Assembly (NCBI GenBank): GCA_963706645.1
Contig: CAVPNR010000018.1
Span: 151,818 to 215,817, forward strand
Length of the DNA stretch: 64,000 nt
Source: an uncultured Acidobacteriaceae bacterium
GTDB taxonomy: Bacteria; Acidobacteriota; Terriglobia; Terriglobales; Acidobacteriaceae
Direction of reading: 5' to 3'
The notes beneath the pieces were generated by a model. That model did no database searches and had not been told where the DNA came from. It saw only the letters and a list, made by a program, of their open reading frames with translations. Of the stretch, positions 36,801-37,592 are shown in pieces. The position numbers were made by a program, and so were the translations under genes. Position 1 is the first letter of the stretch; each line of letters starts with the position of its first letter.

Positions 36801-36930
36801 CGCCGACGCGCTCTCCAGCATGGTCGACATGGGAGACGCCCCCAGTTGCAGCTTCTGCGGCAGCATCATGACCCGCAACGGCAGCTGCTATCGCTGCGGA
36901 AGCTGCGGCAGCACCAGCGGCTGCAGCTAG
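33874..36930 (+). CDS. nrdJ: Vitamin B12-dependent (class II) ribonucleotide reductase
   Basis: The ATG at 33874 is preceded by GGAGAG. 'NSPVWFN', 'SACF', '[21 protein letters not shown]' and 'ISKTVNLP' are present, with a C-terminal zinc ribbon CSFC...CYRC. Confidence 0.92.
   Translation: [1018 protein letters not shown]
35486..35537 (+). repeat. REP-like element, family A, embedded in-frame in nrdJ
   Basis: atgtggggacggccgcctcggccgtccagcgaagcgaagcgagcgcctcggc is homologous to the intergenic copies. It is translated as [18 protein letters not shown]. Confidence 0.75.
36821..36930 (+). repeat. Direct repeat DR1 (functional 3' end of nrdJ)
   Basis: 110 nt, matching 37483..37592 at 100/110 positions without indels (hand alignment). 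Confidence 0.9.
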
Positions 36931-36995
36931 AATCGTGTTTCATTATGTGGGGCGGGCGCCCTCGCCCGCCCGCTCTTTGCTAGCGGAACTGCCGC

Positions 36996-37229
36996 ATGCA
37001 CTTCAAGGTCGTCGGACCCATCGAGAATGTGGAGCTGATCGCATCCGGCAAAGCGATCCGCGAGCGCAAGCGGCTTTGGAAGGCGTATGGCAAGGGACGC
37101 TGGCGGAAACTGAAGGGCAACGCCGAGGTAGAGTTTCCCGATGGTACGATGTGCCATGCGGAAATCCACTGGTACGAAGCCCACGGGATTGGGGCGAAAG
37201 AGCACAAGATCAAGCGAATCGTTGAATGA
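36996..37229 (+). CDS. Hypothetical 77-aa protein, first gene of a two-gene cassette
   Basis: ATG start: MHFKVVGPIENVELIASGKAIRERKRLWKAYGKGRWRKLKGNAEVEFPDGTMCHAEIHWYEAHGIGAKEHKIKRIVE. No repeat-derived sequence and a globular composition. Confidence 0.6.
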   Translation: MHFKVVGPIENVELIASGKAIRERKRLWKAYGKGRWRKLKGNAEVEFPDGTMCHAEIHWYEAHGIGAKEHKIKRIVE

Positions 37230-37245
37230 CCTAAAGACGAGTGAT

Positions 37246-37473
37246 ATGAAACGCGAGGCACAATACGTTATTTGCGTGGGGAACAAGGGTTACCCGGCTT
37301 CGCTGGAGTTGCGCAAGATCTATCAGATCATTCCGGACACGGTCGCAGCCAGACTTCATCAAATTCGCGTCATTGATGAGTCTGGCGAAGACTATTTGTA
37401 CCCGGAAGACTATTTCGTCCCTGTGCAGTTGCCGCAGGCTGTCGAGCGAGCTGTGCGACGGGCGACCGCATAA
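37246..37473 (+). CDS. Hypothetical 75-aa protein, second gene of the cassette
   Basis: The ATG at 37246 is 16 nt after the previous stop: MKREAQYVICVGNKGYPASLELRKIYQIIPDTVAARLHQIRVIDESGEDYLYPEDYFVPVQLPQAVERAVRRATA. Confidence 0.6.
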   Translation: MKREAQYVICVGNKGYPASLELRKIYQIIPDTVAARLHQIRVIDESGEDYLYPEDYFVPVQLPQAVERAVRRATA

Positions 37474-37482
37474 GTCCGGAGT

Positions 37483-37592
37483 TGGTCGACATGGGCGACG
37501 CCCCCAGTTGCAGCTTCTGCGGCGTCATCATGACCCGCAACGGCAGCTGCTATAGATGCATGAGCCGCGGCAGCACCAGCGGATGCAGCTAG
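37483..37592 (+). pseudogene. Direct repeat DR2: displaced, diverged copy of the nrdJ 3' end
   Basis: It would read [35 protein letters not shown], against [35 protein letters not shown] in nrdJ. It is not connected to any upstream nrdJ-like frame. Confidence 0.85.

Follow-up and report, generated by a model that had tools for sequence, protein, structure and literature searches.

A duplicated nrdJ 3′ end bracketing a toxin–antitoxin-like gene pair in an uncultured Acidobacteriaceae bacterium

How can the end of a gene come to stand twice in the same orientation, with other genes between the copies and the gene itself left intact? The question is raised by a 64,000-nucleotide (nt) stretch of DNA from an uncultured Acidobacteriaceae bacterium (assembly GCA_963706645.1, contig CAVPNR010000018.1, positions 151,818 to 215,817), referred to here as the window. 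In the window the gene nrdJ, which encodes a class II (B12-dependent) ribonucleotide reductase, is followed by a 552 bp insert containing one hairpin and two small open reading frames (ORF1 and ORF2, together termed the cassette) and then by a second copy of the nrdJ 3′ end. The copy that closes the gene is termed tail1 and the orphan copy downstream is termed tail2. It is established that an integrase-free block combining a surrogate nrdJ end with a toxin–antitoxin-like pair recurs across many species, and that the paired nrdJ ends are of allelic and not in-situ origin. As to how the block arrived, the answer favoured here, with a probability of roughly 0.6, is that the block at positions 36821–37482 entered by host homologous recombination through the conserved stretch of about 110 nt that encodes the NrdJ tail. 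The coordinates of all features are collected in Table 1.

Individual loci compared with the window are designated L001, L002 and so on. A species-level scan was performed using one genome per species and the NrdJ C-terminus as the query. Of 576 nrdJ loci found, 80 were kept, giving a set of 81 with the window; all 80 relatives' loci come from metagenome-assembled genomes of Acidobacteriota (Terriglobales, ‘Sulfotelmatobacter’). A metagenome scan gave further loci (L099, L104, L110, L113 and L121). Second tails were counted by a profile search for tail copies across the 81 loci, and this nrdJ-seeded set was taken as unbiased for counts of ORF1 and ORF2 presence. Integrases, transposases and reverse transcriptases were looked for in the insert and in the 12 larger ORFs between 24.5 and 48.5 kb.

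The repeated nrdJ end and the origin of its copies

The nrdJ product scored 1455 bits against NCBIfam PRK06556 (cut-off 859) and contains the Pfam domains Ribonuc_red_2_N (class II N-terminal), Ribonuc_red_lgC (barrel; 3e-137) and TSCPD. Tail1 encodes the Cys-rich domain of NrdJ, a six-Cys array of the form C-x2-C-x9-C-x2-C-x2-C-x5-C; in the class II enzyme of Stackebrandtia all six C-terminal cysteines are needed for turnover (PMC5704485). The two copies were aligned without gaps both by the repeat search and by a separate comparison, with 101 of 111 nt identical, identical runs of 27–28 nt and a BLAST E-value of 1.9e-36 within the window. The first-pass annotation of this DNA, made from the sequence alone, had given 100 of 110 positions, to which one matching base after the stop codon is now added. 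Similarity breaks off abruptly at both edges. Neither a third tail copy nor a further copy of the insert, as in an accretion array, was found in the 64 kb window.

Six codons differ between the copies, three of them synonymously; the other three give S>V, G>M and C>R in tail2. The motif GSCG has thereby become MSRG in tail2 and Cys5 has been lost through C>R. This V..M..R variant still has an open frame, with TTG and ATG starts and the sequence GGAG 9 nt before the ATG. Both the codon comparison and the ORF coordinates agree with the anatomy described in the first-pass annotation, namely an open but orphaned downstream copy lacking one Cys, preceded by two small co-oriented ORFs of which the second stops 9 nt short of it.

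An assembly artefact, which had been named as a possible refutation, was excluded by two independent assemblies from different samples of the same population. These (L176, 98.8% identical, and L177, 99.6% identical, over 1.3 kb) show the same duplication with the same ten mismatches. A diversity-generating retroelement with a template-repeat/variable-repeat (TR/VR) pair was also rejected: the ten mismatches are not adenine-specific but affect every one of the four bases, and in both directions. No reverse transcriptase was found among the ORFs examined.

Overall identity did not resolve the donor of tail1 or the native status of tail2, as both copies are about 90% identical to their best relatives and nrdJ itself is mosaic among the compared genomes. 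Among the identity comparisons, only the segment-wise one with L001 and L095 was informative on which copy arrived later. Identity to L001 is 95.8% in the linker-coding segment just upstream of the repeat and falls to 84.7% in tail1. For L095, whose cassette is the most similar to that of the window, identity is 75% in the linker (the figure also obtained with L082), 89.2, 90.3, 89.5 and 89.9% in tail1, the hairpin and leader, ORF1 and ORF2, respectively, and 60–67% beyond. Since identity to L095 is uniform at about 90% from tail1 to ORF2 while the flanks follow other relatives, these 662 bases (36821–37482) are read as one unit with one shared history. The left breakpoint of the block coincides with the left edge of the repeat. 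On the same comparison the linker is resident, L001-like background, and tail1 would be an imported surrogate end of nrdJ.

The sequence beyond the second copy is in keeping with this assignment. Tail2 is followed by an element resembling a miniature inverted-repeat transposable element (MITE), a two-hairpin element and a hairpin with a T-run. The cassette-free loci L019 and L023 show the same order immediately behind the nrdJ stop, and L005 shows it with a hairpin replacing the MITE-like element. Judged by this order, tail2 sits in the ancestral arrangement of the nrdJ 3′ untranslated region (3′UTR). The G/M difference between the copies (GGA versus ATG) is a natural polymorphism of functional tails: the M (ATG) state of tail2 also occurs in L001, L002, L004, L005 and L006, and its V lies a single step away from the A found in L001 and L005. 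The proposal of the first-pass annotation that a surrogate 3′ end had been supplied and the original end displaced is thus supported, by tail1 matching the cassette in its identity to L095 and by tail2 lying in the ancestral order.

The kind of difference between paired copies was then used to separate alleles from a decayed duplicate. If one of two identical copies drifts under no selection while the other is kept, about 32% of the differing codons are expected to be synonymous. For seven pairs (the window, L029, L047, L066, L110, L165 and L169) the pooled count was 43 synonymous versus eight non-synonymous differing codons (binomial p=1.7e-14 against a share of 0.32). The synonymous differences include Ser TCN↔AGY switches; all 13 differing nucleotides of the L066 pair are synonymous, two such switches among them, and the L169 pair has ten synonymous differing codons and one non-synonymous. 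This excess shows the paired copies to be two functional alleles of different genomes placed side by side, the orphan having then acquired a few decay mutations.

Slippage or unequal crossing-over could have duplicated the nrdJ end locally in tandem, one copy then decaying and the cassette being inserted independently. This too would give two nearby direct copies with sharp edges, and each orphan does share lineage-specific synonymous states with its own functional copy. This simple case, listed in the first-pass annotation as one that would overturn its reading, is rejected by the synonymous excess, which in L066 includes two changes of Ser codon family. In addition, the GGA/ATG difference mirrors a natural allele pair, the identity of tail1 to L095 equals that of the cassette and second tails are strongly tied to cassette presence (see below). 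We consider such an origin scarcely credible.

Recurrence beside nrdJ and at other host genes

Empty sites were sought among relatives, as had been suggested, and were found in the closest ones: L001–L006 lack the cassette and have a single nrdJ 3′ end. Most of the 60 cassette-free loci likewise have a single tail. In 21 of the 81 species-level loci nrdJ is directly followed by ORF1, ORF2 or both, and all looked-up contexts of close ORF1 homologues adjoin nrdJ. A second tail was detected in 7/21 cassette loci versus 1/60 cassette-free loci (odds ratio 29.5, Fisher p=2e-4). The search for the insert elsewhere beside nrdJ-like 3′ fragments, also proposed at the outset, yielded 11 further loci (L012, L018, L025, L029, L047, L053, L099, L104, L110, L113 and L121). 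The divergence of NrdJ and that of the cassette are uncorrelated (rho −0.01 and −0.06), which indicates that the cassette is exchanged among lineages at the nrdJ locus; ORF1 and ORF2 co-vary (rho 0.67).

The orphan tails are preserved to very different degrees. Full-length copies are present in the window, L029, L066 and L104. The L104 orphan scores like a functional tail against the tail profile, those of L029 and L066 encode a peptide unchanged in its Cys-rich part, and in L012 all six Cys are kept and an ATG overlaps the ORF2 stop (TAATG). The L018 orphan has a 9 nt deletion that removes Cys5; that of L110 has lost Cys2 and is interrupted by a GC-rich repeat-like insertion; that of L025 has a stop codon and frameshifts; that of L099 is cut short; and L031, L047 and L053 retain fragments only. 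The architecture of L082 is the same throughout, the MITE-like element downstream included, with an orphan decayed to about 58% identity. In L066 (6857–7163) the two full-length tails are 87 bp apart with only a GC hairpin between them and no cassette, and the orphan outscores the functional tail of that locus against the tail profile.

The state of the orphans bears on whether they could be functional small genes, each encoding a Cys-rich peptide of 33–36 amino acids that mimics the NrdJ tail and is expressed with the cassette. The open frame of tail2 with its starts and GGAG, the overlapping ATG and six Cys of L012, and the well kept copies of L029, L066 and L104 would all suit a gene of this kind, and selection on it would also give the synonymous excess. 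The loss of Cys5 in the window and L018 and of Cys2 in the interrupted L110 copy, together with the stop codon and frameshifts of L025, the fragments in L099, L053, L047 and L031 and the decay in L082, speak against it, as do the orphans at other host genes, which are short fragments without starts. A peptide function is accordingly regarded as very improbable.

A comparable footprint was observed away from nrdJ. Among the 43 non-nrdJ cassette loci with enough flanking sequence to be testable, four have an orphan C-terminal coding fragment beyond the cassette, a count that covers this cassette family only. Orphan ends were found of a GcvT/DAO dehydrogenase gene on a marine contig (L165), of a MoaB-like (MoCF_biosynth) gene convergent to the cassette (L169; peptide 29/30 identical, with 13 nt differences), of a Peptidase_S9 gene (L109) and of an unnamed 159-amino-acid gene (L152). 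In L092–L094 about 850 nt from the internal part of pnp (polynucleotide phosphorylase) are duplicated beyond the cassettes with 85–98% identity (L092 1621–6449). Between these duplicates lie a 404-amino-acid gene that matches no family, an ORF1/ORF2-like pair and a gene for the antitoxin BrnA. Across loci the repeats range from about 50 to 850 nt and the cassette can have either orientation to its target gene (L169). No universal cassette-end motif was found across the host genes.

The cassette, its family and its surroundings

The insert ORFs encode proteins of 77 and 75 amino acids only, without a family match, and no integrase, transposase or reverse transcriptase was found in the insert or in the 12 larger ORFs; the statement in the first-pass annotation that the insert has no integrase therefore stands. 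Its label of ‘REP-type’ (repetitive extragenic palindromic) for the hairpin was not borne out. The hairpin occurs once in the window, so that dispersal is not demonstrated; near-identical counterparts are present in L095 and L007, and similar hairpins follow the nrdJ stop in L001, L005 and L082. The TAGCGG motif of the leader is specific to the nrdJ-linked cassette subfamily. The G+C content at third codon positions (GC3) of the cassette is host-like, at 64–73% versus 75% for nrdJ, which suggests exchange within the clade.

Homologue searches gave about 5950 close homologues of ORF1, all near 77 amino acids and forming 1385 clusters at 50% identity, and about 8000 homologues of ORF2. Neither product had a match in Pfam, NCBIfam, PADLOC, PHROGs, PDB sequences or phage genomes. 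The sole plasmid match was to a Thiodictyon megaplasmid, on which both genes are annotated ‘hypothetical protein’. In nearly all loci, across phyla and on the plasmid, ORF2 follows ORF1 within 1–35 nt or overlaps it. ORF2 is present alone in 11/21 cassette loci of the nrdJ-seeded set; ORF1 stands alone only as a frameshifted remnant (L013). Neighbours of the genes in other genomes include BrnT/BrnA, DUF4258, HicAB and PIN/DUF433 pairs. The tight spacing, the basic and acidic products, the toxin–antitoxin neighbours and the occurrence of ORF2, but not of intact ORF1, alone point to a widespread, unnamed toxin–antitoxin-like pair.

In type II toxin–antitoxin modules of the higBA, hicAB and brnTA order the toxin gene comes first. 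ORF1 and ORF2 resemble such modules in being small, close and co-oriented with one basic and one acidic product, in their patchy distribution and clustering with toxin–antitoxin pairs, and in the frequent survival of the second gene alone. They are unlike them in that neither sequence matches a family of toxins or antitoxins; their activity is putative. One protein of the representative library (P0372, 185 amino acids) is a fusion of an HNH endonuclease domain, at the N-terminus, with an ORF1-like domain. In L090 a 53 nt direct repeat (4883–4935 and 5568–5620; 79% identical) brackets an ORF1/ORF2-like pair and precedes a DUF4258 pair, possibly as a leader or promoter that recurs in adjacent toxin–antitoxin cassettes.

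Models of both proteins were obtained with AlphaFold2 (AF2) and compared using Foldseek. The ORF1 model has a predicted local distance difference test (pLDDT) score of 92, and its best fold match (E 1.4e-4, TMq 0.77, 31% identity) is to part of a phage ‘minor capsid protein’. MuF-family proteins, which are frequently encoded in the DNA-packaging module of phages, are a family of polymorphic toxins (PMC5576092). The likeness is taken as a lead only. Against the PDB the ORF1 model gave no significant match; RAD52-like matches at E 0.19 were not used. The ORF2 model (pLDDT 78) is predicted to form an SH3/Tudor-like small barrel with a C-terminal helix (Foldseek E about 0.01).

Downstream of tail2, the two-hairpin element is kept after nrdJ in L003, L005, L019, L022, L023 and L031 and had no match in an Rfam search. 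Hairpins homologous to the following hairpin with a T-run close the region in L003, L005, L019, L020, L022 and L023. A consensus terminator scan did not flag this hairpin; from its position and fold it is likely to be the real terminator of the nrdJ operon. The cassette is probably co-transcribed with nrdJ, because it is placed between the nrdJ stop and the likely terminator and a promoter scan upstream of it gave no sigma-70-like promoter.

Table 1
Features of the nrdJ locus in the window
Feature	Position	Strand	Basis or remark
nrdJ, class II (B12-dependent) ribonucleotide reductase, 1022 amino acids, intact	33862..36930	+	NCBIfam PRK06556, Pfam
Hypervariable linker-coding segment of nrdJ, just 5′ of the repeat	36701..36820	+	Alignment; segment identities
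Tail1, repeat copy 1, functional last 35 codons and stop of nrdJ	36821..36931	+	Repeat search; segment identities
GC-rich hairpin after the nrdJ stop, 9 bp stem, 4 nt loop; weak terminator-like site	36949..36971	+	Folding, terminator scan
Leader with motif TAGCGG(T/A); its end is about 10 nt 5′ of the ORF1 start	36981..36995	+	Conserved in most nrdJ-linked cassettes
ORF1, 77 amino acids, basic, putative toxin of an unnamed family	36996..37229	+	Homologue search, AF2 model
ORF2, 75 amino acids, acidic, putative antitoxin or immunity protein	37247..37473	+	Homologue search, AF2 model, Foldseek
9 nt junction GTCCGGAGT, ORF2 stop to tail2	37474..37482	+	GTCCGG common to L012
Tail2, repeat copy 2, putative earlier nrdJ end, orphaned, frame still open	37483..37593	+	Repeat search; codon comparison
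MITE-like element (TTGTCATYCCGA...GTCGAGGGA)	37600..37660	+	Directly after the nrdJ stop in several cassette-free relatives
Two-hairpin element of the nrdJ 3′UTR	37666..37745 (structured region 37660–37745)	+	Minimum free energy −40.4 kcal/mol, z −5.85
Hairpin and T-run (GGGGGCACGG..GTGGCCCC TTGTTTTATTT), likely nrdJ operon terminator	37758..37796	+	Fold z −2.85

Some further features of the window were recorded. Right after the likely nrdJ terminator lies a gene for a SIR2_2 and SEC-C protein (37801–39912; first possible start 37744), with PADLOC matches to Dsr1, LmuA and ThsA-type SIR2 domains. This variable, defence-like gene has a GC3 of 55% versus 75% for nrdJ and is missing from L002 and L004. 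An Rfam Acido-Lenti-1 RNA was identified at 40114–40160 on the forward strand (47.5 bits; gathering score 37), with a weaker, sub-threshold match of 24 bits at 33686–33731 on the reverse strand. Upstream of nrdJ, a sequence of about 65 nt (33339–33405) has several opposite-strand recurrences in related genomes (L014, L026 and L030) and is probably a dispersed repeat. ARAGORN reported a ‘tRNA-???’ with an irregular two-base anticodon call at 11944–12026 (+).

Routes of entry and comparison with known systems

In the proposed mechanism the block would consist of a foreign functional allele of the last 35 codons and stop of nrdJ, the GC hairpin and the two-gene cassette. Upon its entry nrdJ would stay intact, ending in the imported tail, and the earlier tail would be displaced downstream, joined to the old 3′UTR, where it would have started to decay (Cys5>Arg, Ala>Val). 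Two routes are envisaged. By the first, a single crossover (Campbell-type or ‘ends-in’) would take place between the chromosome and a molecule carrying the tail and the cassette. Such a crossover duplicates the homologous segment, and the gene would remain whole because that segment runs through the stop codon. The hypervariable linker would cap the usable homology on the left side, so that the duplication starts at the onset of conservation. Some features expected of ends-in integration are present at the locus, namely a sharp-edged duplication, allelic and mainly synonymous differences and a tail1 at the identity level of the cassette to L095. By the second route the finished structure would later spread through ordinary double crossovers, in which nrdJ serves as left arm and the orphan tail, being portable, as right arm. 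Spread of this kind would account for the difference between the window orphan, 91% identical to tail1, and the L082 orphan, decayed to about 58%. An addiction-type function of the cassette would select against pop-out between the repeats.

Site-specific integration was weighed against this mechanism. Here the insert would be a non-autonomous element, a cis-mobilizable element (CIME) or satellite, with the tails as attL and attR and an integrase located elsewhere in the genome or in a helper. An insert flanked by direct repeats of a gene 3′ end with the gene left intact, empty sites in relatives and the use of one target by many species are all expected of such an element, and the identical runs of 27–28 nt could act as a core. 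However, the insert and the 12 larger ORFs contain no integrase, and the repeats are diverged over their whole length instead of having an identical core with divergent arms. The variable repeat length, the left edges that differ by cassette type, the possibility of either orientation and the lack of an end motif common to the host genes also argue against a site-specific recombinase. Site-specific integration is judged quite unlikely. Of the two entry routes given in the first-pass annotation, recombination with a foreign nrdJ allele is thus favoured and the integrase-type integrative element is not.

Homology-facilitated illegitimate recombination (HFIR) of linear foreign nrdJ–cassette DNA differs in its far end, which would be joined illegitimately upstream of the resident tail, the tail serving as the sole anchor. 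One-sided homology suits the non-syntenic downstream regions, varied left edges suit independent illegitimate joins, and HFIR has been proposed for analogous displacement arrays in type VI secretion system (T6SS) and rhs loci (PMC5361080). The process is rare, however, and usually deletes recipient DNA instead of duplicating it, and in an Escherichia coli experiment the duplications arose from single crossovers of circles and not from HFIR (PMC3240628). The junction GTCCGG after ORF2 is moreover common to diverged cassette types, which favours inheritance over repeated illegitimate joins. HFIR is held to be an unlikely source of the structure.

Several observations weigh against entry by host homologous recombination as set out above. 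No recombination intermediate, either a circle or an empty-site allele within the population, was observed. Tail2 matches the L001 tail at only 95 of 111 positions, although L001 is the best linker match; tail2 may not be the former end of the window's own lineage, and the finished structure may have been imported whole at a later time rather than formed there. The left edge of the orphan varies, from −109 in the window to about −111 in L012, L018 and L029 and −134 or further in L110 and L121, and edges that differ between cassette types require several founding events. The duplication without a cassette in L066 means that the process is not strictly dependent on ORF1/ORF2, and the first arrival of the cassette beside a new host gene has no explanation. 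The two proteins match no known toxin or antitoxin family, the toxicity of ORF1 being only putative, and the synonymous excess could instead mean selection on the orphan copies.

A broader proposal goes beyond the single locus. The ORF1–ORF2 family may be a hitherto unrecognized kind of integrase-free mobile cassette that brings a copy of a conserved host gene's 3′ end to serve as its integration arm, enters by host homologous recombination, leaves the gene intact, is expressed from the transcript of that gene and is kept by toxin–antitoxin addiction. The orphan ends at nrdJ, the GcvT/DAO, MoaB-like and peptidase S9 genes and the internal pnp duplicate would then belong to one cassette-specific life cycle and would not be by-products of recombination. 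The basic ORF1, with its HNH fusion in one library sequence, would possibly help entry. This generalization is tentative and rather doubtful.

Those prophages, integrative and conjugative elements and genomic islands whose targets are tRNA, tmRNA or protein-coding genes restore the 3′ end of the gene they enter, and CIMEs are integrase-less derivatives of such elements. The nrdJ locus resembles them in having an intact gene with a replacement end, an old end left as an orphan direct repeat and empty sites in relatives. In contrast, the cassette has neither an integrase nor a defined core, the length and edges of its repeats vary, its cargo is only two small genes (552 bp) and its footprint is found at unrelated genes in either orientation.

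By analogy, the closest described process is the C-terminal displacement in rhs, CDI (contact-dependent growth inhibition) and T6SS loci. It was reportedly described by Jackson et al. in 2009, as cited by Kirchberger et al. in 2017. In these loci a new 3′ end with one or more small genes is recombined via a conserved upstream stretch, the earlier 3′ end is shifted downstream as an orphan, and the arrays then spread by homologous recombination (PMC5361080). As there, the orphan 3′ fragments in the window and at least 11 other nrdJ loci keep the conserved stretch. The displaced tips of rhs, CDI and T6SS loci are different toxins with selected diversity, whereas both nrdJ tips encode the same Cys-rich tail of NrdJ and the selected cargo lies between them.

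A laboratory precedent exists for the crossover itself. In E. coli conjugation, a single crossover of a circle with a fragment of the lacZ end gave duplications of 109–950 bp, and these outnumbered true HFIR (PMC3240628). That study used a plasmid construct and describes no natural integrase-free cassette that takes the single-crossover route (PMC3240628); the nrdJ cassette is natural, and no circular form of it was observed. In both cases a duplicated gene end brackets the inserted DNA, over 109–950 bp there versus about 50–850 nt here.

Small toxin–antitoxin-type cassettes are found everywhere in bacterial genomes, and their movement without a recombinase of their own is poorly understood. 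The nrdJ locus would offer a concrete route for such movement, in which the spare nrdJ end acts both as a homology arm for entry and as a safeguard of gene survival. It would further mean that species exchange the NrdJ redox tail, the 3′ end of a gene for an essential enzyme. The footprint, an orphan end belonging to a different functional allele, is easily searchable and recurs at several unrelated genes. Mapping it could chart such events at scale and could address the question of whether conserved ends of genes act in general as landing pads when genes pass between species without an integrase.

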